Source of the DNA: an uncultured Anaerolineae bacterium
Lineage (GTDB): Bacteria > Chloroflexota > Anaerolineae > S140-20
Direction of reading: 5' to 3'
DNA length: 25,077 bases
NCBI GenBank assembly: GCA_964607235.1
Contig: CAZSJU010000012.1
Location: 1 to 25,077, forward strand
In this document: piece by piece, positions 1 through 9,496 of the stretch
How positions within the stretch are numbered: position 1 is the first letter of the stretch
Layout of the letters: each line of letters starts with the position of its first letter
Made by a program: the position numbers and the translations under genes
Notes under the pieces: model-generated
Databases searched by the model: none
What the model was told of the DNA's origin: nothing
Seen by the model: only the letters and a program-made list of their open reading frames with translations

Positions 1-349
1 CCGGGGGGTTGGGCACTTGGAACAATTGCAAGGCCTCCTGGCCCAACGCCGGCGCCGCGTCCGACCCGACGCGGCCCTGAACCGTCTGCAACGCGGTGAT
101 CAGGTAGGTCCAAAAACGAGGTGGTTCATTGTCGTCGGCGTCCAGTGATAACCAGGCTACCCGTTCGCGCCGCCCTTCCACCCACCCGCTCAACAAGGTG
201 GTTTTGCCAAAGCCGGCCGGTGCCGAGACGAGCGTCAGCCTTTGCCCCTGCTGCAGTCCTCCTTCCAGCCGCTGCATCAGGCGTGGACGGGGCACCAGGT
301 TCGGCGGCGGCGGGACGTAGAGTTTGGTGGTCAAGAGTAGCGCGGTCAT
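1..349 (-). CDS. LuxR/MalT-family STAND (P-loop) transcriptional regulator, N-terminal portion; the gene continues beyond the window start
   Basis: Minus-strand translation from ATG (complement of 347-349) gives MTALLLTTKLYVPPPPNLVPRPRLMQRLEGGLQQGQRLTLVSAPAGFGKTTLLSGWVEGRRERVAWLSLDADDNEPPRFWTYLITALQ. This matches the MalT N-terminus pattern: L.P...V.R.RL, then P-loop APAG(Y/F)GKTTL, then AW(L/Y)SLD..DN..RF..YLI.A.Q. No stop occurs in the window, so it is absent from the ORF track. Confidence 0.6.
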   Translation of the reverse strand, partial: MTALLLTTKLYVPPPPNLVPRPRLMQRLEGGLQQGQRLTLVSAPAGFGKTTLLSGWVEGRRERVAWLSLDADDNEPPRFWTYLITALQTVQGRVGSDAAPALGQEALQLFQVPNPP

Positions 350-390
350 TGTGTCTCTATATTAGCACGATTTAGCCGGTGCTCAAAGTG

Positions 391-482
391 CCCCCCCTCT
401 AACTCCCCCCAACAGGGGGGAGAACTGGGCGCGTCGTCACGGGCGCCGATCTTTCCCCCCGTGGGGGGGAACTGAAGGGGGG
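391..482. repeat. Cluster of C/G homopolymer tracts forming two short G/C hairpins in the divergent regulator/nurA promoter region
   Basis: Seen directly: C7 at 391-397, C6 at 405-410, loop aaca, G6 at 415-420 (hairpin 1). C6 at 455-460, gt, G7 at 463-469 (hairpin 2). G6 at 477-482. Additional GGG at 427-429 and 441-443. Flanking motifs agaactg and aactgaa are similar. Confidence 0.5.
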
Positions 483-493
483 CGCCAACCTAC

Positions 494-522
494 TTGACGC
501 ATGCGAACAGACGTGCTATAGT
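494..522 (+). promoter_or_regulatory. Sigma70-like promoter for nurA-like operon: TTGACG, 17 nt, TATAGT
   Basis: TTGACG at 494-499, 17-nt spacer at 500-516, TATAGT at 517-522. SD-like gagagggg at 538-545, 4 nt before ATG 550. Confidence 0.4.
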
Positions 523-549
523 CCCTTCCATATCTTTGAGAGGGGCACG

Positions 550-1746
550 ATGACGCTAAATCTGTCCGCGTTGACGGCGGACGTCGAAAAGATGGGCGAG
601 GTGCTGGTCCAACTGGACCAGGCGCATCAAGATTTGTTAAAGGTGGCCCAAGAGCGCTTGGAAACCTATGCCGAGGCGCACGCGGCCATTGAGGAGCGGG
701 TGCAGCTCACCCGCCGGCAGAACTTGCACTGGCGCGGCGCTTATCTGGCGGGTGAAGAGCCGCTGAACGCGCGCCATCCCGCCCCGCCGATGCCGCCCCG
801 CGTGGATGTCATTGCCAACGACGGCTCCCAGGTGCCCATCGACCCCCACGCCGCCGCGCTGTATTATGCCATCAACATTGGGACGATCATTTACCCCTAT
901 GGCGCCGATCGGGCGCCCACCGTCGACAGCGACCCTAGCCTGCATTTTTACGAGGAAGACTTGATGGAGCGGGGGTACTTGATCCCCAACGCTGTGGTCA
1001 ATGCGCGCCGCACGGTCCGCGAGCTGCAGCGCCTGGCCGACCTGGGCGCCGCTTATGCCAAGTTAGAGACGCCCTCCGCGCTGTTGAGCGACGGGCCGCT
1101 GATGTGGGTGCAGCCGGGCGACACGCCCCAGGCGCGGCGGCAGAATCTGAAACCGTATCTGGAGAATTTTGAGCGTTTGCGGGACGCGCATGCGACGTTG
1201 GGCGGATACGTGGACCGGCCACGCAGCGGTGGGGTGCTGAGCCTGTTGCACCTGCTCAGCCTGGAACTGGAGCAGATCGACAAAGACCGTCTGGCCGAGA
1301 ACGACCTGGCCGGCCTGACCGACGCACGCCTGTTCGCCACGCTGTTGGGGCCGGGTGAGCGCTCGGCGCTCTTTATCCGGCAGTCGCCCACCAACCGCAA
1401 TTACGCCGACGACGGGCACGAGATCTGGCATTGCTACGTCAATGTGGGCGCGGTAGAGCGGCGGCCGCTGATCGCGCGGCTAGAGATGCCGTGCTGGGTG
1501 GCCCAAGACCCGGCCCGACGCGATCTGCTGCACGCTGTGGTGTGGCAACAGTCGCGGGTGCTGGGTGGTTACCCTTATGTGTTGGCCCGCGCCCACGAAC
1601 TGGCCGTGATCTCGACCGACGAGCGGCGCGACCTGGAAGAGATGGTCGTCGGCGCGCTGCGCCGGCGCGGGCTGGACGCGCGCCCCTCAGAGAAGGCCTG
1701 GCAAAAACAAATGACCGGGGGCGCCAGGAGGAGACATCACTTATGA
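550..1746 (+). CDS. nurA: NurA-like 5'-3' nuclease (putative HerA partner)
   Basis: 398-aa ORF. Contains VIANDGSQVPID, which is a NurA motif-I-like xDGS with a catalytic Asp candidate. Also a downstream acidic EEDLMERG segment and a second LLSDGPLM (DGxL) motif, with spacing roughly as in NurA. Context: translationally coupled to the downstream ORF and followed by an unambiguous HerA. Assignment by eye only. Confidence 0.5.
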   Translation: MTLNLSALTADVEKMGEVLVQLDQAHQDLLKVAQERLETYAEAHAAIEERVQLTRRQNLHWRGAYLAGEEPLNARHPAPPMPPRVDVIANDGSQVPIDPHAAALYYAINIGTIIYPYGADRAPTVDSDPSLHFYEEDLMERGYLIPNAVVNARRTVRELQRLADLGAAYAKLETPSALLSDGPLMWVQPGDTPQARRQNLKPYLENFERLRDAHATLGGYVDRPRSGGVLSLLHLLSLELEQIDKDRLAENDLAGLTDARLFATLLGPGERSALFIRQSPTNRNYADDGHEIWHCYVNVGAVERRPLIARLEMPCWVAQDPARRDLLHAVVWQQSRVLGGYPYVLARAHELAVISTDERRDLEEMVVGALRRRGLDARPSEKAWQKQMTGGARRRHHL

Positions 1747-2354
1747 GCACAGGGGATCAACAGTTCATGGTAGGGCGCGTGCTGCGCTCTAGCATTCGCG
1801 GGTTCATCATCGCCTCGCGCATTCCCGAGCCTGACGTGCCGGTGTTTGGCGCCTTTGTGCGGGTCAAGGTGCAGCAAGGGGCCACCGACCTGATCGGCCT
1901 GGTGTACGACATCCAGGTCGCCGACGATCCCTTTGTGCGCCAGTTGGCCATGCAAGAAGAGCCCGACGAGGTGGCGCTGGCCGACCAGCGCGAGATCCGT
2001 GGGGTGCCCATTGAGGTGAGCGTGCTGGCGGTGGGCTATTGTCAGGACGGGATCATCTTGCATGGTCTGCCGCCTCAACCGCCGATCATGCTCAACCGCA
2101 TCTTTGTGTGTGACCCGGCGTTGGTGCGCGACTTTAGCGCGCGGCTGGATTTCTTGCGCCTGGTGTACAATAGCCGCGAGGTGCCGGCCGACGAGCTGCT
2201 TGTGTCCAGTTTACAGTTGGCGGCCCAGGCCCGCCCCCAGGCCGAGCGCGCGCCGTTTTTGATCGGGGCCGGCCGCGAGTTGGCGCGGCTGATGGGCGCC
2301 GACCCGGTGCGCCTGGAAGCGCTGCTGAGACGATTGGGCCAGGTGGTGGCTTGA
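1743..2354 (+). CDS. Hypothetical 203-aa protein between nurA-like and herA; possible stand-alone HAS-barrel-like fold
   Basis: ATG at 1743 overlaps the nurA stop (ATGA at 1743-1746). SD aggaggag at 1727-1734. N-terminus MVGRVLRSSIRGFIIASRIPEPDVPVFGAFVRVKVQQGATDLIGLVYDIQV shows the same alternating hydrophobic/Gly pattern as the HAS-barrel at the HerA N-terminus (PLGVIVGG..AVGRYVVVEGRTGRRFFSMINDV). The ORF track start at 1431 lies in another frame inside nurA and is rejected. Confidence 0.55.
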   Translation: MSTGDQQFMVGRVLRSSIRGFIIASRIPEPDVPVFGAFVRVKVQQGATDLIGLVYDIQVADDPFVRQLAMQEEPDEVALADQREIRGVPIEVSVLAVGYCQDGIILHGLPPQPPIMLNRIFVCDPALVRDFSARLDFLRLVYNSREVPADELLVSSLQLAAQARPQAERAPFLIGAGRELARLMGADPVRLEALLRRLGQVVA

Positions 2355-2595
2355 GCGGCGATTGAAATCGCGGCAACCGAAACCCGCCTGCGCAGGTTGA
2401 CACAGTGACCTGGAACGTCAATTTTTAACGCAGAGACGGGGAGATGCAGCATGTTTGAGGGACAGATGAAGAATTTTGCCGTGGATGAGAGACCAAGCTT
2501 TATTGGGCGACATGGCGCGCAGAGCATCAAGGCTAACATAAAGGGTCCTTGCGCCTTTGCGTTGGGTTTTTTGTATTGGGCACAGGAGAGTGGGG

Positions 2596-4320
2596 ATGAC
2601 TGAGGAGCTAGAGGGCGCTATTGAACAGCCGGTCGAAGAGCCGGAAGACCTGGACGCGTGGTTCCCGCGCGCGCCCGAACCGCCGCCCGCGCTGCCGTTG
2701 GGCGTGATCGTCGGCGGCTGCCTGAGCAAGGGGTTGGATGTCAAACTGGACCGGCGCGCCGTCATCGAGGGGTTGGCCGTGGGGCGCTATGTGGTCGTGG
2801 AGGGCCGCACAGGGCGGCGCTTTTTCAGCATGATCAACGACGTGGCGCTGGACAGCACCAATCCGTTGCTCGAAAAGTATCCGCCGGCCGAGGAAGAGGC
2901 GTTCGTGCGCCAGGTTTACGCCGGCACGATGACTTTTGGCCGTTTGCACGTCGTCCCCATGCTGGTGATGCAGCCCGACGAGGATGAACCGCGCCCGGTC
3001 AAGACCATCCCGACCCATTTTGCCCCGGTGTACGAGGCCAGCGCTGAGGACGTAAGCTTGATCTTTGGCGACGCGGCGCAAGAGGGCTATTTTCAAATCG
3101 GCGAGCCGCTCGAGATGGAGGGTATCCCCGTGGCGCTGGACCTGTCCCGCTTTGCCGAGCGCTCCAGCGGCATCTTTGGCAAGAGCGGCACCGGCAAGAC
3201 CTTTCTCACGCGGCTATTGTTGGCCGGTTTGATCAAGCAGGGCCAGGCGGTCAATCTGGTGTTCGACATGCACAACGAGTATGGTTGGAAGAGCCAGGCC
3301 GAGGACCGGGCCGAGGTCAAGGGCTTGCGTCAATTGTTCTCCGGCGGCCAGGTCAGCGTGTTCACGCTGGACGACGAGTCGAGCCGGCGGCGCGGCAGCA
3401 AGACCGATTTCACCGTGCATCTGGGCTACGAGCAGATCGAGCCTGAAGACGTCGAGATGGTGGCGGCGCTGATGGGGTTGAGTGACATCCAGATCGGCGC
3501 GCTCTATTTTTTAAAGCGACACCTGGGGCGCGCCTGGATCGCGCGCTTGTTGGACGAGGACGACCCATTGGACGACCTGGGGCAGGCGTTGGAGCGCGGC
3601 AGCCTGCACGCCGGCACGTTGGGCGCCATCCAGCGCAAGCTGGGGATGTTTCGACGGTTTGGCTTTTTGCGCGAGCGTGTCACCGATGACCCGGTGCGGC
3701 GCATCCTGGATTATTTGAACCAGGGCACAAGCGTCATCCTGGAATTCGGGCGTTACGGCAACTCGCTGGAGGCTTATTTGCTGGTGGCCAACTATATCAC
3801 GCGCCGCATCCACGCCAACTATGTGCACCGCAAGGAAGCCGCCCTGGGCCGCCAGGCCGACGAGCCGCGCCAACTGGTGATCACCATCGAAGAGGCGCAC
3901 AAATTCCTGGACCCGCTCATCGCGGGACAGACCATTTTCGGCACCATCGCCCGCGAACTGCGCAAGTACAATGTGACGCTGCTGATCGTGGACCAGCGAC
4001 CCAGCGGCATCGACCCCGAGGTGATGAGCCAGGTCGGCACGCGCGTCACCTGCCTGCTGGACGATGAGGCCGACGTGCGCGCCGTGCTGTCCGGCATTTC
4101 AGGAGCAAGCCAGTTGCGCCAGGTGTTGGCGCGGCTGGACACCCGTCAGCAGGCGCTGATCATGGGGCACGCGGTGCCGATGCCGGTGGTGGTCAAGACC
4201 CGCGCCTATGACGTGGACTTTTACGCCGCGATGGGCTATGCGGCGTCGGTGGACCCGGGCGAGGTGCTGGCGCGCAACCGGGCGTTGCTGCGCGGCGACG
4301 CGGACGAGCAGGGGATTTAG
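2596..4320 (+). CDS. herA: HerA-type ATPase/helicase (FtsK-HerA superfamily, DUF87-like)
   Basis: N-terminal HAS-barrel-like segment. Walker A GIFGKSGTGKTFLTRLL. HerA-typical VFDMHNEYG (D-p-H-G-E-Y). Walker B LVITIEEAHKF. VTLLIVDQRPSGIDPEVMSQVGTRVTCLLDDEAD (HerA QRPS...D motif). Start chosen at ATG 2596 (SD aggagag at 2585-2591, 4-nt spacer). The alternative upstream ATG 2557 has no SD. Confidence 0.8.
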   Translation: MTEELEGAIEQPVEEPEDLDAWFPRAPEPPPALPLGVIVGGCLSKGLDVKLDRRAVIEGLAVGRYVVVEGRTGRRFFSMINDVALDSTNPLLEKYPPAEEEAFVRQVYAGTMTFGRLHVVPMLVMQPDEDEPRPVKTIPTHFAPVYEASAEDVSLIFGDAAQEGYFQIGEPLEMEGIPVALDLSRFAERSSGIFGKSGTGKTFLTRLLLAGLIKQGQAVNLVFDMHNEYGWKSQAEDRAEVKGLRQLFSGGQVSVFTLDDESSRRRGSKTDFTVHLGYEQIEPEDVEMVAALMGLSDIQIGALYFLKRHLGRAWIARLLDEDDPLDDLGQALERGSLHAGTLGAIQRKLGMFRRFGFLRERVTDDPVRRILDYLNQGTSVILEFGRYGNSLEAYLLVANYITRRIHANYVHRKEAALGRQADEPRQLVITIEEAHKFLDPLIAGQTIFGTIARELRKYNVTLLIVDQRPSGIDPEVMSQVGTRVTCLLDDEADVRAVLSGISGASQLRQVLARLDTRQQALIMGHAVPMPVVVKTRAYDVDFYAAMGYAASVDPGEVLARNRALLRGDADEQGI

Positions 4321-4348
4321 GGTAAAATGGACGCAGGGAGAAAAAGAA

Positions 4349-4374
4349 AGGTTTTTAGCAAAAACCTGGTTTCC
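4349..4374 (+). terminator. Intrinsic-terminator-like hairpin downstream of herA
   Basis: Perfect 8-bp stem aggttttt (4349-4356) / aaaaacct (4360-4367), loop agc, followed by ggtttcc. About 30 nt after the herA stop. Confidence 0.45.
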
Positions 4375-4418
4375 GTGGCGCTACATTGAAATACTTTTGT
4401 ATACAAGGAGGTGGACGG

Positions 4419-4709
4419 ATGGCGGAATCAACGGGGAAATCGTATGCGGCCGAGTGGGAGACGTGGACTTTGATCCCGGCCGGGGCGGGATGGATGTTTG
4501 CGGTGGGCATCATTGAGCAGAGCGGGCGGCGGCGCGTGCGCGTGGCCAAGGGCAAGGTCAAGGTGGCCGAGTCCGGCGAGTTGCCGATCTCGCAACAGTC
4601 CAAGTTTAATCTCAAACCGGCCGATTGGAAGCCCCTGCGGGAGGCGATCGACCGCTATGTCGCCCAACTCGCGTCTGAGACTGGCGAGGACGTAGTCAAA
4701 GAGGCATAG
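4419..4709 (+). CDS. Hypothetical small protein (97 aa)
   Basis: ATG at 4419 preceded by strong SD aaggaggtgga. MAESTGKSYAAEWETWTLIPAGAGWMFAVGIIEQSGRRRVRVAKGKVKVAESGELPISQQSKFNLKPADWKPLREAIDRYVAQLASETGEDVVKEA. Contains a hydrophobic segment. No recognisable family. Confidence 0.5.
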   Translation: MAESTGKSYAAEWETWTLIPAGAGWMFAVGIIEQSGRRRVRVAKGKVKVAESGELPISQQSKFNLKPADWKPLREAIDRYVAQLASETGEDVVKEA

Positions 4710-4767
4710 GGGGGGAGGATGTTATTCGAACGGATCGTTTCTCCAGGCCTGGCCGGCTGGAGGATTA

Positions 4768-4803
4768 GGTGACCGGCGCCTGCCAAAGGTGCCGGTCACC
4801 TTT
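4768..4803 (+). terminator. GC-rich 13-bp hairpin followed by TTTGG (possible terminator for the 97-aa gene)
   Basis: ggtgaccggcgcc (4768-4780), loop tgccaaa, ggtgccggtcacc (4788-4800). 13 bp with one G-U pair. Followed by tttgg. Confidence 0.3.
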
Positions 4804-4809
4804 GGCGGT

Positions 4810-5225
4810 CAAAGGAATCCCATCAGTCAGGATGGCGCGGTAAAGGGGCAGGCGGGTGCGGCCTATCTCGGCCCAGCGCTCCGGATCAGTGGTATTGCGT
4901 AGCTCAAAGGCTCTGCCGTAAGCGTGACTGTCCTGCGTCGAAAATATGCCCGGCTTGACCAAGAGCTCTCTGAAAGCAGCTAGCACACCAGAGTGTTTGT
5001 TCCGTGTCAGATCTAGGGACAAAAGTAAAGCTGTGGCTGCATAAAAGAAAACGTAATAGACCCGATTGATAGCGACATCGTAAAGTCGCCGTCGAGACCG
5101 TATTGTGCGCTTTGTAATGCGTCTCGGGCACCGTTGATATAGGAAGCTACTGCTTCTTTATTGATGGGCTCTTGTTTTGCGTCCACGGTGTTAACAGTAT
5201 AGTAGTATATCTGGGTTTAAAAGGC
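4810..5225 (-). pseudogene. Low-GC segment with frame-disrupted minus-strand ORF remnants (possible decayed gene or foreign DNA)
   Basis: GC drops visibly relative to the flanks. Minus-strand translation gives ...VDAKQEPINKEAVASYINGARDALQSAQYGLDGDFTMSLSIGSITFSFMQPQLYFCP* without an ATG. Two other minus ORFs (4765-5022, 4904-5131) lie in different frames. No intact gene can be assembled. Confidence 0.25.
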
Positions 5226-5230
5226 AATAC

Positions 5231-6457
5231 ATGGAGAAAATAAGGCTCCTACATTTCGCAGACTTGCACATCGGCATGGAGAACTATGGCCGGCTGGACC
5301 CCAAGACCGGCATCAGCGGGCGCGTGCTCGACTTTGTGCATCGCCTGGACGAATTAATCGACTATGGCCTGGCGCATGACGTCGATCTGGTGGTTTTTAG
5401 CGGGGACGCTTTCAAGACGCGCGACCCCAATCCTACTTACCAGCGTGCCTTTGCGCGGCGCGTCAAGCGCCTGACCGACGCCGGCGTGCCGTTGGTGCTG
5501 TTGGTCGGCAACCACGACATCCCGGCCATGGTCAAAAAGGCCAACAGCCTGGACATCTTTCATATTCTGGCGGTGCCCAACGTGATTGTCGGCCGGCAGG
5601 ATGAGGTGCACCGCATAGAGACCAAGCGCGGCCCGCTGCAGGTGGTCACCGTCCCCTATCCGGTGCGCTCGCGGCTGTTGGACCATCCCGAGTACCGTGG
5701 GTTAAGCATGGCCGAGTTGGATCAGACGCTGCGGCAGGTCGTCACCGAGTTGATCGGGGCGTTGCGCGACCAGTTGGACCCGGACCTCCCAGCGGTGCTG
5801 GTCGGGCATTTTAGCGTCGCCGGGGCAGTGTGGGGCTCGGAGCGCAGCGTGATGCTGGGGCGTGACGTGGTCGTGCCCAAATCTGCGCTGGCGGACCCGG
5901 CCTTTGATTACGTGGCGTTGGGCCATATTCACAAGCATCAGAACCTGAGCGCGGGGGAAGTCGGCGTGCCGCCGGTGGTCTATGCCGGCAGCCTGGAGCG
6001 CATCGACTTTGGCGAAGAGGGCCAGACCAAGGGCTTTTGCTGGGTCGAGCTGGCGCGCGGCGCGACCGAATGGCAATTTGTCCCGGTCAAAGCGCGGCCT
6101 TTTCGCACCATCCGCGCCGACGTGCGCCAGGCTGAAGACCCTACTCAGACCGTGCTGGACGCCGTCGCCGGACATGACATAGCTGACGCGGTGGTGCGGC
6201 TGATCGTCCAGACCACGCCTGAGGCCGAGGCGCGCCTGCGCGACAAGGAGATCCAAAAGGCGCTGGCGCCGGCCAACTATTTGGCGGCTTTTGTCAAAGA
6301 GACTGAGCATCAAGAGCGGGTGCGTCTGGGTGACGTGGCGCCCGAGTCGTTAACGCCAGCCGAGCTGTTGGCGCTTTACCTGGTGGCCAAAGAGACGCCG
6401 CCAGAGCGGGCCGAGATGCTGTTAACGTATGCCGAGACGCTGTTTCAGGCGTCGTGA
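5231..6457 (+). CDS. sbcD: SbcD / Mre11-family DNA repair exonuclease (calcineurin-like phosphoesterase)
   Basis: MEKIRLLHFADLHIGMENYG...VVFSGDAFK...LLVGNHD...GHIH. These are the canonical Mre11/SbcD phosphoesterase motifs I-IV, plus a C-terminal capping domain. Confidence 0.9.
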   Translation: MEKIRLLHFADLHIGMENYGRLDPKTGISGRVLDFVHRLDELIDYGLAHDVDLVVFSGDAFKTRDPNPTYQRAFARRVKRLTDAGVPLVLLVGNHDIPAMVKKANSLDIFHILAVPNVIVGRQDEVHRIETKRGPLQVVTVPYPVRSRLLDHPEYRGLSMAELDQTLRQVVTELIGALRDQLDPDLPAVLVGHFSVAGAVWGSERSVMLGRDVVVPKSALADPAFDYVALGHIHKHQNLSAGEVGVPPVVYAGSLERIDFGEEGQTKGFCWVELARGATEWQFVPVKARPFRTIRADVRQAEDPTQTVLDAVAGHDIADAVVRLIVQTTPEAEARLRDKEIQKALAPANYLAAFVKETEHQERVRLGDVAPESLTPAELLALYLVAKETPPERAEMLLTYAETLFQAS

Positions 6458-6472
6458 GTCGGGAGAGGACGT

Positions 6473-9034
6473 ATGATCCCCGTCAAGTTGGAACTGGAGA
6501 ATTTCTTGTGCTACCGCCAGCCCGCGCCGCTGGATTTTAGCGGCATCCACGTGGCCTGCCTGGCCGGGGAGAATGGCGCCGGCAAGTCCAGCCTGTTGGA
6601 CGCGATGACCTGGGCCTTGTGGGGCAAAGCCCGCGCCCGCCGCGACGACGAGTTGATTTACTTGGGCCAGGACGAGATGCGGGTCGAGTTTACCTTTGAC
6701 CTGGAAGGTAACCGTTACCGCGTCTTGCGTCAGCGCCAGGCGACCAAGCGCGGGCGCAGCGTGCTGGACCTGCAGATCGCCGACGAGGACGGGCACTTTT
6801 GCGCCATCAGCGAGTCGACCATCCGCCAGACCCAGGTCAAGGTTGATACATTGTTGCGCCTGGATTATGACACCTTTGTCAACTCGGCCTTTTTGTTGCA
6901 GGGGCGGGCTGACGAGTTCACGATCAAGACGGCCGGCGAGCGCAAGCAGATCCTGGCGGACATCTTGGGGCTGGACCGCTGGTCGCGCTACGAGGCGCGG
7001 GCCAAGGCGTGCCTCAAAGAGACCGACGAGGCGGCCGCCGTCGTGGCGGCGCGCCTGGAAGAGATCGACCGCGAGTTGAGCCAGGAAGCGACGTATCGTG
7101 TCGACCTGGCCACGGCCCAGGCGGCGGCGTTACGTCTGTCCGACGCGATGCGCGAGGCTGAGGCCCGTTTGCGCGAGGTGCAGGCCGCGCGCCAGGACCT
7201 GACGCACAAGCGCCAGGGACATGAAGACCTGGCGCGGCGCCTGGCCCAGGGGGAAAGCGAGCTGGCGCGGGTGCGCGACGCGTTGGCCCAGGCTCAGGCG
7301 CGCATTGAGGCATACGAGACGATTCTGGCCCAGGCGCAAGAGATCGCGGCCGGCTATGGACGTTGGACCGCGGCCCGCACGGCGGACGCGGCGTTCAACG
7401 CCTTGCTGGCGGAGCAGGCCGCGTTGTTGGAGGGCCGGGCGGTGTTGGAGAAAAGGCTATCCGACGCGCGCTCCGAGTGGGTGGCCCGCAAGAGCGCCCT
7501 CGACCAGCAGGTGGCCGAACTGCGCCGTCGTGCTGCCGGCGCCGAAGCGGCGGGTGACCTGGCGGCGGCCCGGGAGGAACTGGCGACGCTGGCGGAGCGT
7601 GAGGTCGAGCGCGACCGTCTGCAGGCCCAACTGGCGACGCTGGGCCAAGAGCTGGGAGGGCGCCAGGCCGAAAGGGAAGCGTTAGAGGCCAAGGGCGTCG
7701 AGCTGAACGAGCGATTGGAAAAATTGGAGGGCATTGACACCCAGGCGGCGGCTCTGTGCCCCCTGTGTGGGCAGACGTTGAGCGAGATCCATCGCGCGGA
7801 CCTGGTCGCGCGTCTGGCGTCAGAGCGGGAGGCGATGCGCCAGGATTGGCAGGAAAACAAGACGCGCATCAAGGCCATCACTCAAGAAACCCAAGAGTTG
7901 CAACAAGCGCTGGACCAGGCCCTCAACGCGTTGCGGCGCTTGCCGGCGCTACAGCGACGTCAGGCCGAGCTGGCCCAGCGGGTGGACGATGCCCAGGCGG
8001 CGACCGCCGAACTGGAAGCGGTGCAGGCCGAGCGGGCGCGCGTGCAGGCCCGGTTGGAGGCGCAAGACTATGCGCCGCAGGTGCGCCGCGAGCTGTCGGC
8101 GCTGCAGGCCAAGCAGGACGCCTTGGGCTATGATGCTGCAGCCCATCGCGACGCCCAGCACGAACTGTCAGAGCTGGCGGCTTTTGAGACGCGCTATGCC
8201 GAGTTGGAGCAGGCACGGAAAGAGATCGACGCGGCGCGTGCGGCGGTCGAGGAGGTCTGCGAGCGGGAGAGCCGGTGGGCGTCCTCGCTGGCCGAGGATC
8301 ATGTCAAGCAGGCCGCGCTGGCGGGCGAAATCGAACAACTGGAAGCCCGGCTGGTCGACGCCGACCAGGTGGAGGCGGACGTAGAGACCTTGCGCCGGGA
8401 CGAGTCTCAGGCGCGGATGCGGCTGGGAGCGGCCCAACAGCGGCTCGATGCCTGCCAAGCTCTCAAGGTGCTGCGCCAGGAGCGCTTGCAAGAGCAAACC
8501 CGCCTGGCGGAAGAGCGGGTAATTTACGACGAGCTGCGCGTGGCGTTTGGCAAAAAGGGCGTGCCGGCCATGATCATCGAAGCAGTGCTGCCCGAGATCG
8601 AGGACAGCGCCAACGCACTGCTGAGCCGTATGACCAACGGCCGCATGCATGTACGTTTTGAGACCCAGCGCGAAAAAGTGACGGGCGGCGTCGCCGAGAC
8701 GTTGGACATCCAGATCAGCGACGAGTTGGGCACGCGCAACTATGAGTTGTACTCGGGCGGCGAGGCTTTTCGCATCAATTTTGCCATCCGCATCGCATTA
8801 TCGCAGTTGTTGGCGCGGCGGGCGGGCGCGCGCCTGCGCACCCTGGTGATCGATGAGGGGTTTGGGACGCAGGACGCCCAGGGACGCGAACGGCTGGTAC
8901 AGGCCATCAATGCCATCCAGTCCGACTTTGAGCGGATTTTGGTCATCACCCACATTGACGAGCTCAAGGACGCCTTTCCGGCCCGCATTCAGGTCACAAA
9001 GACCGTGACAGGCTCTCAGATGGAGATCATCTAG
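6473..9034 (+). CDS. sbcC: SbcC / Rad50-family SMC-like ATPase with zinc hook
   Basis: N-terminus LELENFLCYRQ...LAGENGAGKSSLLDAM (Walker A). Long Ala/Glu/Arg-rich coiled coil with central CPLCGQTL (CxxC hook). C-terminus LYSGGEAFRINFAIRIAL (signature) and TLVIDEGFGTQD (Walker B/D-loop). SD gggagagg 4 nt before ATG, 15 nt after sbcD stop. Confidence 0.9.
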   Translation: MIPVKLELENFLCYRQPAPLDFSGIHVACLAGENGAGKSSLLDAMTWALWGKARARRDDELIYLGQDEMRVEFTFDLEGNRYRVLRQRQATKRGRSVLDLQIADEDGHFCAISESTIRQTQVKVDTLLRLDYDTFVNSAFLLQGRADEFTIKTAGERKQILADILGLDRWSRYEARAKACLKETDEAAAVVAARLEEIDRELSQEATYRVDLATAQAAALRLSDAMREAEARLREVQAARQDLTHKRQGHEDLARRLAQGESELARVRDALAQAQARIEAYETILAQAQEIAAGYGRWTAARTADAAFNALLAEQAALLEGRAVLEKRLSDARSEWVARKSALDQQVAELRRRAAGAEAAGDLAAAREELATLAEREVERDRLQAQLATLGQELGGRQAEREALEAKGVELNERLEKLEGIDTQAAALCPLCGQTLSEIHRADLVARLASEREAMRQDWQENKTRIKAITQETQELQQALDQALNALRRLPALQRRQAELAQRVDDAQAATAELEAVQAERARVQARLEAQDYAPQVRRELSALQAKQDALGYDAAAHRDAQHELSELAAFETRYAELEQARKEIDAARAAVEEVCERESRWASSLAEDHVKQAALAGEIEQLEARLVDADQVEADVETLRRDESQARMRLGAAQQRLDACQALKVLRQERLQEQTRLAEERVIYDELRVAFGKKGVPAMIIEAVLPEIEDSANALLSRMTNGRMHVRFETQREKVTGGVAETLDIQISDELGTRNYELYSGGEAFRINFAIRIALSQLLARRAGARLRTLVIDEGFGTQDAQGRERLVQAINAIQSDFERILVITHIDELKDAFPARIQVTKTVTGSQMEII

Positions 9035-9100
9035 GCGGGGATGAAAAAGTCGCCTACGGCAGCGAGAATGAACGGATGCGGGTCTGCCGGACGTGATGGC

Positions 9101-9496
9101 TCAAGACAGGATTGGACTCGCGTTTGTGCCCAGCAACTTTAAAATGCGGTTCCGGAATTCACATGGTTCAAAGGGCTTGAAGGTATAGGAGACGATTGAT
9201 GGCTCGTGCCAGGGAAAACGGTTGGCGTTCCACCAGATCACGCTGAGCACCCACACCGGAGTGTCTTTTAACTGTGGGTCGTCCTGCATCTTGAGGAAAA
9301 GCTCTCGGCCGGTGATGTCGGGCAACATCAGATCGAGGACGACCAGGTCTGGGTCTAACTGGCGGGCAAGCGCCAAACCTTCGCCGCCGGTCGGCGCCAC
9401 GATCCAGTTAACGGGATCGTTCTCAAACAAAGCCTGGACCATCTCGGCGACGTCGTTGTCGTCTTCTATGTGTAAAACGGTTTTGTTTTGAAACAC
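9101..9496 (-). CDS. Stand-alone response regulator receiver domain protein (CheY-like)
   Basis: VLHIEDDNDVAEMVQALF...LVVLDLMLPDITGRELFLKMQ...PVWVLSV. Receiver-domain Asp pocket and phospho-acceptor D in VVLDLMLP. Apparent GTG start at 9496, preceded by the G-rich SD aggggggaca. Confidence 0.75.
   Translation of the reverse strand: MFQNKTVLHIEDDNDVAEMVQALFENDPVNWIVAPTGGEGLALARQLDPDLVVLDLMLPDITGRELFLKMQDDPQLKDTPVWVLSVIWWNANRFPWHEPSIVSYTFKPFEPCEFRNRILKLLGTNASPILS

Follow-up and report, generated by a model that had tools for sequence, protein, structure and literature searches.

A nurA-X-herA-mre11-rad50 gene cluster in a Chloroflexota genome

The DNA analysed here, in the following called the window, is a stretch of 25,077 nucleotides from an uncultured Anaerolineae bacterium of the Chloroflexota (contig CAZSJU010000012.1 of assembly GCA_964607235.1, positions 1 to 25,077 of the forward strand). 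Within 8.5 kb of its plus strand, at 550-9034, it carries nurA, herA, mre11 and rad50, co-located and co-oriented, and a conserved gene between nurA and herA that we call X. A sequence-only reading of the same DNA had described a three-gene module of a nurA-like gene, a gene of unassigned family and herA: the three open reading frames (ORFs) lie where it placed them and the first two overlap by ATGA as it described, and further downstream lie mre11 and rad50, which it had not reported. Comparisons are based on 98 loci, consisting of homologue contexts, three contigs from genomes and 80 from metagenomes, the latter retrieved with an alignment of X (alignment A1); individual loci are given as L and a number.

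The first gene, nurA (550-1746, plus strand), encodes a protein of 398 amino acids that is predicted to be a 5'-3' nuclease of the NurA family (RNase H-like). It matches PF09376 over the whole profile (positions 2-254 of 254, residues 86-354; 85.6 bits, cut-off 21, E = 5.1e-24), and its earlier designation as NurA-like holds. The DGSQ motif is D91-G92-(S93)-Q94; D91, G92 and Q94, as well as E158 and E350, are invariant across 21 aligned orthologues. D91 can be read, by motif rather than by alignment or superposition, as the counterpart of D53, the catalytic residue of Deinococcus NurA (PMC9960219). The C-terminal tail of the protein is basic, and this is conserved: its last 30 residues have a net charge of +7, with a mean of +6.9 over 46 orthologues.

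The herA ORF opens with a TTG at 2557; its start is likely the ATG at 2596, because an AGGAG Shine-Dalgarno site is present and the N-termini of the orthologues begin at the same place. From there, herA (2596-4320, plus strand) encodes 574 amino acids, a predicted hexameric DNA translocase ATPase of the HerA/FtsK superfamily. The assignment, made before from motifs, is confirmed by the match to PF01935 (101 bits, cut-off 23.2, E = 1.4e-28), and the motifs themselves (Walker A GKSGTGKT, DMHNEY, IEEAH and DQRPS) are all found in the translation. Very likely the protein has an N-terminal HAS-barrel: it has a weak match to the HAS-barrel profile (16.9 bits, cut-off 25.2), the orthologue of L003 is above this threshold with 28.0 bits, and the orthologues of L010, L012 and L097 have weak precomputed matches. 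The closest solved structures by sequence are 8wiv, a bacterial HerA from a SIR2-HerA complex (E = 1.4e-17), HerA of Sulfolobus (4d2i, 1.4e-16) and HerA of Thermococcus (9x1l, 2e-15); no match between Deinococcus HerA and the window HerA reached E = 1e-3 with phmmer. The window HerA stays below all NCBIfam equivalog cut-offs tested, those for repair (NF040937, NF040819) as well as those for anti-phage HerA (NF042943, NF042944), with 54.6-79.4 bits versus 800-970 bits; by these scores it belongs to the superfamily and to none of these four subfamilies.

Further downstream, the gene mre11/sbcD (5231-6457, plus strand) encodes a Mre11-family nuclease of 408 amino acids with a match to the sbcD model TIGR00619 (140.8 bits, cut-off 77.65) and to Metallophos (E = 6e-14). 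The gene rad50/sbcC (6473-9034, plus strand) encodes a Rad50/SbcC ATPase of 853 amino acids with coiled coil and zinc hook: AAA_23 (E = 4.6e-20), SMC_N and SbcC_Walker_B (33.2 bits) are above their thresholds, Rad50_zn_hook (residues 404-451, E = 7.8e-5) is just under it with 22.8 bits versus 24.3, and the sbcC model TIGR00618 (E = 5e-85) is under its cut-off with 286 bits versus 478.5.

A candidate promoter of the operon lies 28 nt 5' of nurA on the plus strand (494..522; TTGACG, 17 nt, TG-TATAGT). It is the top-scoring sigma-70-like match within positions 1-9300 and agrees with the consensus at 10 of 12 positions plus the extended -10 TG, which is a consensus match only. The other genes of the window have housekeeping or signalling functions (GidB, a PfkB kinase, GAF/PAS histidine kinases, PspA and solute-binding proteins), and there are no tRNAs and no Rfam RNAs in the window.

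Protein X is predicted to be a free-standing HAS-barrel

X (1743-2354, plus strand) encodes a protein of 203 amino acids. Its start codon overlaps the stop codon of nurA (ttATGAgc), and the end of nurA contains a Shine-Dalgarno sequence, GGAGGA, 9-10 nt before this start. The protein of the window has no match in Pfam, NCBIfam, PADLOC or PHROGs, and a profile of X retrieved only chance matches among the PDB sequences (E at least 0.9). The family is large, with 988 homologues in the 90% collection; a profile search found 794 clusters at 50% identity, 475 of these at E up to 1e-10. Alignment A1, which contains 49 sequences, has 33 invariant columns, and two invariant motifs are specific to the family: DDPFVRQ at 61-67 (with the DD at 61-62) and LPPQPP at 109-114 (LPxQPP). 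X is a real gene under purifying selection: dN/dS ratios towards the three closest relatives are 0.23-0.25 for X, 0.23-0.27 for NurA and 0.16-0.22 for HerA, values that are approximate because dS is near saturation (0.7-1.0).

An AlphaFold2 model of X based on the 49-sequence alignment (pLDDT 79.9, pTM 0.77) has an N-terminal beta-barrel with a helical insert (residues ~12-122) and a C-terminal helical bundle (residues ~125-202). When this model was compared with the PDB by Foldseek, the best 50 matches were all HerA chains (E down to 4.7e-5, 124-146 columns in most), and it superposes on the N-terminal barrels of many HerA structures with 2.5-4 Å over roughly 125-145 residues. The N-terminal barrel, and only this part, also superposes with lower scores on F1/V1 ATP-synthase and FliI ATPases. 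At the sequence level, 13 of 80 diverse members of the family match the Pfam HAS-barrel (E up to 0.01), the only family that recurs; a single one, P0270, is above the gathering score (28.1 versus 25.2 bits). Profile alignments (hhalign) between the X family and the N-termini of the cognate HerA proteins are weak but in register (P = 8e-4 to 7e-3, probability 4-25%), with X 8-61 aligned to HerA 33-87 at P = 8e-4, and we regard them as supporting evidence only. Judged from its predicted structure and from these other family members, X is a free-standing HerA-type HAS-barrel with a helical bundle and without an ATPase domain. The suggestion to look for a HAS-barrel in this ORF was thus a good one for the predicted fold and for the 13 members, and failed for the window protein itself. 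As the HerA proteins of these operons very likely keep a HAS-barrel of their own, X would be an addition rather than a piece split off from HerA.

Two homologues that looked like natural NurA-X fusions (P0242 and P0245) were rejected: they are frameshifted, low-quality gene calls and not real fusions. Another homologue, P0047, carries the precomputed tag PF26500.1, which was not reproduced with our copy of Pfam even at E = 10 and is absent from the literature searched; a newer Pfam release may already contain the X family as a domain of unknown function. Where the sampled members have a name in their source, it is 'hypothetical' or 'uncharacterized' protein only, and in full-text literature searches we found no report of a NurA-HerA system with a third component made only of a HAS-barrel.

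X is tightly linked to nurA and more loosely to herA and mre11-rad50

Collapsing X at 90% identity results in 71 lineages. In 52 of the 58 lineages with enough flanking sequence, nurA is directly upstream of X; two of the six exceptions are caused by a gene inserted between nurA and X. Stop and start codon overlap as ATGA in 20 of 46 complete nurA-X pairs. Of the 27 lineages whose flank is 3.5 kb or longer, 21 have herA downstream of X: its frame opens at most 300 nt from the end of X in 13 of these 21, several overlapping X, and 359-2314 nt away in eight. The middle ORF is a conserved gene that relatives keep between nurA and herA, and the neighbourhood comparison bears out the three-gene module. 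Genes occasionally inserted between nurA and X encode an unassigned 299-aa protein in L012 (5970-7001) and, judged from sequence only, a PIN-like ORF in L022 (7257-7688, minus strand).

The gene order is retained in distant relatives, in which X has only ~30% identity: nurA, X and herA are tightly packed, with mre11, alone or together with rad50, behind them (for example in L010 and L011). Compact orders are nurA-X-herA-mre11-rad50 in L011 and nurA-X-herA-mre11 in L010 and L018; in L002, L003 and L010 all three genes abut or overlap, and herA overlaps X in these most compact operons. Co-location of all four resection genes is also found in L004 and L011 and, in part, in L010, L018, L076 and L091. 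The linkage to mre11-rad50 is not universal: these genes are not found within ~8 kb in L005, L012 and L097.

With one exception, all named members of the X family are from Chloroflexota, namely from Anaerolineae, Thermoflexus and Herpetosiphonaceae. The complete genome of the cultured Thermoflexus hugenholtzii JAD2 has the nurA-X-herA triad (CP076326.1, ~2,760,845-2,764,550, with nurA at 2760845-2762029, X at 2762042-2762680 and herA at 2762844-2764550); a metagenome-assembled genome (MAG) of Herpetosiphonaceae has the nurA-X pair with no herA within ~8 kb. The exception is L011 (GCA_030445865.1, 5797-13097), a MAG labelled Clostridia bacterium, which has the most compact nurA-X-herA-mre11-rad50 cluster with gaps of 11-64 nt. 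Its label, which is not that of a Chloroflexota genome, means either horizontal transfer, a wider distribution of the cluster or a mislabelled bin.

The differences in linkage could be taken to mean that X and NurA form a nuclease module that is independent of HerA, with a putative ATPase-less HAS-barrel ring serving, for example, as a passive DNA-encircling platform or clamp and with the linkage to herA being secondary. X is linked more tightly to nurA (52/58) than to herA (21/27, often interrupted), several long contigs have nurA-X with no herA within ~8 kb (L065, L078, L079, L081, L098), and HerA evolves more slowly than X and NurA, whose rates are the same. However, X is followed by herA in most lineages, with the two genes overlapping in the most compact operons (L002, L003, L010), and contigs cannot prove that herA is absent from these genomes. 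Moreover, characterised NurA nucleases need HerA for processive resection (PMC3326311, PMC9960219). We consider a HerA-independent module unlikely.

In a few lineages, X is found in other surroundings. One lineage has X directly 5' of RtcA-like (RNA 3'-phosphate cyclase) and RNase Z-like genes (L069 3275-3943, L086 2950-3807, L088 1103-1723, L092 7926-8576), and either X has a second role there or the cluster has been broken up. In L013 (3755-6421), the X homologue directly follows an AAA_15/AAA_21 ATPase and DUF4276 pair and precedes an aminotransferase. Together with the absence of a family match for the window protein, these loci would fit a conserved neighbour that does something unrelated, or what is left, in decay, of a duplication of the 5' end of herA, in either case with no part in the function of NurA-HerA. 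A remnant is difficult to reconcile with a dN/dS of ~0.23-0.25, with ~800 clusters of full-length proteins of ~200 amino acids and with the many invariant residues, and coincidence is not expected to produce a HerA-specific fold, translational coupling to nurA and a synteny that is kept at 30% identity; both possibilities are very improbable.

The X-herA spacer, the trailing gene and a HEPN remnant

The spacer between X and herA (2355-2595, non-coding, no strand assigned) is 241 nt long; the sequence-only reading had described it as a lower-GC spacer of 240 nt. Regulatory RNA, promoter and terminator were rejected as explanations, as the spacer has no significant RNA structure (z = -0.41), no match to an Rfam family and no promoter- or terminator-like consensus site. 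Similarity to the spacer is limited to one near-identical contig (L007), and it is absent in the compact operons L002, L003 and L010. In close relatives, nucleotidyltransferase/HEPN (MNT-HepT, DUF86) toxin-antitoxin cassettes and MNT-HEPN fusion genes have repeatedly landed between X and herA (L005/L006 8618-9513; L022 8723-10514; L027 9592-10490; L058 1342-3763; L066 6315-8955; L048 5705-6178). The spacer, absent or filled by a cassette in relatives, is lineage-specific and not part of the system or its mechanism.

The trailing ORF, which the sequence-only reading had attached to the module, did not hold its place there either. This small gene between herA and mre11 (4419-4709, plus strand, 96 aa) is preceded by AAGGAGG, and 40 of its 96 alignment columns are invariant; it has no match in Pfam, NCBIfam, PADLOC or PHROGs. 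Homologues with 73-87% identity have unrelated contexts in other genomes, where they adjoin a Hrq1-like helicase or sit near groEL. The predicted structure consists of three strands and a helix (pLDDT 71.7) and has no convincing fold relative. The ORF is a real, highly conserved, separate gene, and it is a lodger rather than a component of the module because it is missing from the compact five-gene operons.

Between this gene and mre11, on the minus strand and outside the module, lies a frameshifted HEPN-like gene (4765-5190), probably the remnant of a toxin-antitoxin pair. Its frame switches between minus-strand frames 2 and 1, separating the N-terminal part from the NRVYYVFFYAA...HSGV core, and it is either such a remnant or an assembly error. 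Intact relatives with 61-63% identity are present in L022, between herA and mre11, and in L027, downstream of herA at a locus where no mre11 was detected; L004 has a partial match (72% over 57 residues).

DNA repair or anti-phage defence

HerA proteins serve in repair as well as in defence, and the sequence-only reading had left the choice between a housekeeping repair machine and a HerA-based defence system. In a defence system against phages or plasmids, HerA would act as scaffold for NurA as the effector and X as sensor or regulator, comparable to SIR2-HerA, DUF4297-HerA and TdpAB. The similarity searches can be read in this direction: anti-phage models (NF042943, E = 2e-22; PDLC04105, E = 3e-31) are among the best matches of HerA in NCBIfam and PADLOC, the top solved sequence match of HerA is the SIR2-HerA complex chain 8wiv, and X has its top structural match in TdpA, from the TdpAB defence complex. 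However, the score for the anti-phage HerA equivalog is far under its cut-off (79 versus 800 bits), and models of archaeal repair HerA give similar scores; PADLOC matches only HerA and, as a generic SMC-like protein, Rad50, with NurA and X having neither PADLOC nor PHROG matches. Toxin-antitoxin cassettes are repeatedly nested inside the cluster, and this too would suit a defence locus, as would the lack of clear repair phenotypes in bacterial NurA-HerA mutants and the genome-protection role proposed earlier for HerA-NurA (PMC3326311). Against this stand the linkage to mre11-rad50, seen in the window as well as in distant relatives (L004, L010, L011, L018), and the absence from the locus of a SIR2, DUF4297 or TdpB-like effector partner or of any defence effector domain. 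No relatives of X were found in viral contigs.

The genes flanking the cluster are housekeeping genes and vary between genomes, which argues for a vertically inherited core gene set rather than for a mobile defence island, and the restriction of all named members but one to a single phylum is unlike the patchy distribution of defence genes. Defence is quite an unlikely function for this locus, and of the two functions left open before it is largely the repair side that stands, with mre11 and rad50 downstream and housekeeping genes as neighbours. A phage or mobile origin was rejected, as none of the viral contigs held a relative of X and neither NurA nor X matched a PHROG.

A possible accessory subunit of the NurA-HerA machine

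In end resection, Mre11-Rad50 recognises and trims the DNA end, and HerA, as a hexamer, moves duplex DNA through its pore. A NurA dimer is docked on the ring of the HerA N-terminal HAS-barrels and degrades the 5' strand, leaving a 3' tail for recombination. Docking has been characterised in two systems: acidic HAS-barrel residues of Deinococcus HerA (D78/E80/D81) bind basic motifs of NurA (PMC9960219), and in Sulfolobus, NurA is bound via the HAS domain and a hydrophobic patch on NurA (PMC3326311).

We favour, with a probability of about 60%, the reading that the locus is a chromosomal cluster for the processing of double-strand-break ends, with nurA-X-herA followed by mre11(sbcD)-rad50(sbcC) and with X as a NurA-binding accessory subunit. 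The cluster would then act in DNA repair in vivo. We infer that X binds NurA because it is a copy of the NurA-docking domain, is co-translated with NurA, evolves at the rate of NurA and is most tightly linked to nurA. The charges would suit such a contact: the net charge is +7 for the C-terminal tail of NurA, -5 for the barrel of X (with the invariant DD) and -16 for the N-terminal 170 residues of HerA.

Under this reading, translational coupling via the ATGA overlap, with a Shine-Dalgarno sequence of its own inside nurA, would cause X to be made in fixed proportion with NurA. The acidic barrel of X would bind NurA in the way in which the acidic HAS-barrel face of bacterial HerA binds the basic patches of NurA. 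One option is that X would be an adaptor or collar, placed between NurA and the ring of HerA; the other is that it would serve as chaperone or decoy and restrain the nuclease until HerA takes it over. Whether X contacts NurA or HerA, in which stoichiometry, and whether it would activate or restrain NurA is a matter of inference, and X as a third subunit of a NurA-X-HerA resection machine is a proposal. A more specific version, in which X is an ATPase-less HAS-barrel paralogue of HerA that oligomerises and binds the NurA dimer, either in a three-tier NurA-X-HerA machine or in a HerA-independent NurA-X nuclease, is tentative and in our view doubtful.

Several observations weigh against X being an accessory subunit of a repair machine. 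The HAS-barrel assignment comes from the predicted fold and from other members of the family and not from a sequence score of X itself: the window protein has no match to PF09378 even at E up to 1. With HerA very likely keeping a HAS-barrel of its own, none would have to come from X, and the selection estimates have the uncertainty of a nearly saturated dS mentioned above. No herA is present within at least 3.5 kb downstream of X in six of the 27 lineages (up to 8 kb in five), neither nurA nor herA is within reach of X in the lineage with the RtcA-like gene, and both are missing from the 13-kb locus L013; because X is unlinked from nurA and herA or has no herA nearby in these few lineages, a role independent of HerA is possible. 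Lastly, the role of bacterial NurA-HerA in vivo is unsettled, as deletion mutants of Deinococcus and Thermus have little or no repair defect (PMC9960219).

How HerA-NurA couples DNA translocation to strand-specific cutting is debated, and so is how the nuclease spares the chromosome. Conserved, co-translated and, by its predicted fold, a mimic of the NurA-docking domain of HerA, X may offer a natural handle on this coupling, as adaptor, gate or decoy. The proteins should be suited for reconstitution and cryo-EM because the system is found in a cultured thermophile, Thermoflexus hugenholtzii JAD2. If X is indeed a third subunit, the Chloroflexota complex would be the first of the HerA-NurA resection type to have an adaptor or regulatory ring of its own, and it would follow that a free-standing regulator can arise from the NurA-docking domain of HerA. 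The analysis also shows that a four-gene resection cluster of archaeal style, with Mre11-Rad50 of the bacterial SbcCD type, occurs across a bacterial phylum, and it assigns a predicted fold and a likely role to ~800 clusters of proteins.

Comparison with known systems

The fold predicted for X is that of the HAS-barrel domain (PF09378), known from the N-termini of HerA and of F1/V1/FliI-type ATPases, and some members of the X family pass or approach its threshold. In contrast to these ATPases, X is free-standing, lacks the P-loop ATPase domain and has a C-terminal helical bundle of its own.

The anti-phage systems SIR2-HerA/Nezha, DUF4297-HerA and TdpAB likewise have a HerA hexamer that carries a partner enzyme on its HAS-barrel face, and the HerA chains of these systems are among the best structural matches of X. 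The window differs from them by the partner, which is a canonical NurA, by the linkage to mre11-rad50 and by its housekeeping surroundings.

The NurA-HerA of Deinococcus radiodurans and Thermus (PDB 7F6D; PMC9960219) is also a bacterial pair of nuclease and translocase. NurA docks there on the HAS-barrel by ionic contacts, and the charge pattern predicted for the window proteins, with a basic NurA tail and an acidic X barrel and HerA N-terminus, matches this. Unlike in the window, no third gene has been described between nurA and herA in Deinococcus, and its HerA is too distant to be found by phmmer. The Deinococcus nurA-herA pair is not known to be linked to sbcCD.

The closest resemblance in gene content is to the archaeal herA-mre11-rad50-nurA operon for end resection (PMC3326311), which has the same four families together on one strand in Sulfolobus, Pyrococcus and Thermococcus. 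As in the archaeal operon, HerA appears to be composed of a HAS-barrel and a DUF87 ATPase core, and NurA has a full-length domain with the catalytic aspartate of the DGS motif; the window HerA also matches the archaeal structures 4d2i (1.4e-16) and 9x1l (2e-15). The window differs by scores of only 57-69 bits for the archaeal HerA equivalogs (cut-offs 800-970 bits), by its Chloroflexota host, by the order nurA-X-herA-mre11-rad50, by Mre11 and Rad50 being of the bacterial SbcD/SbcC type and by the additional conserved X between nurA and herA. As all four families of archaeal end resection are present in one cluster, the locus is, by its sequence relationships, the bacterial (Chloroflexota) counterpart of the archaeal operon: not a new category of system, but an end-resection system of a known kind with X as its new element.

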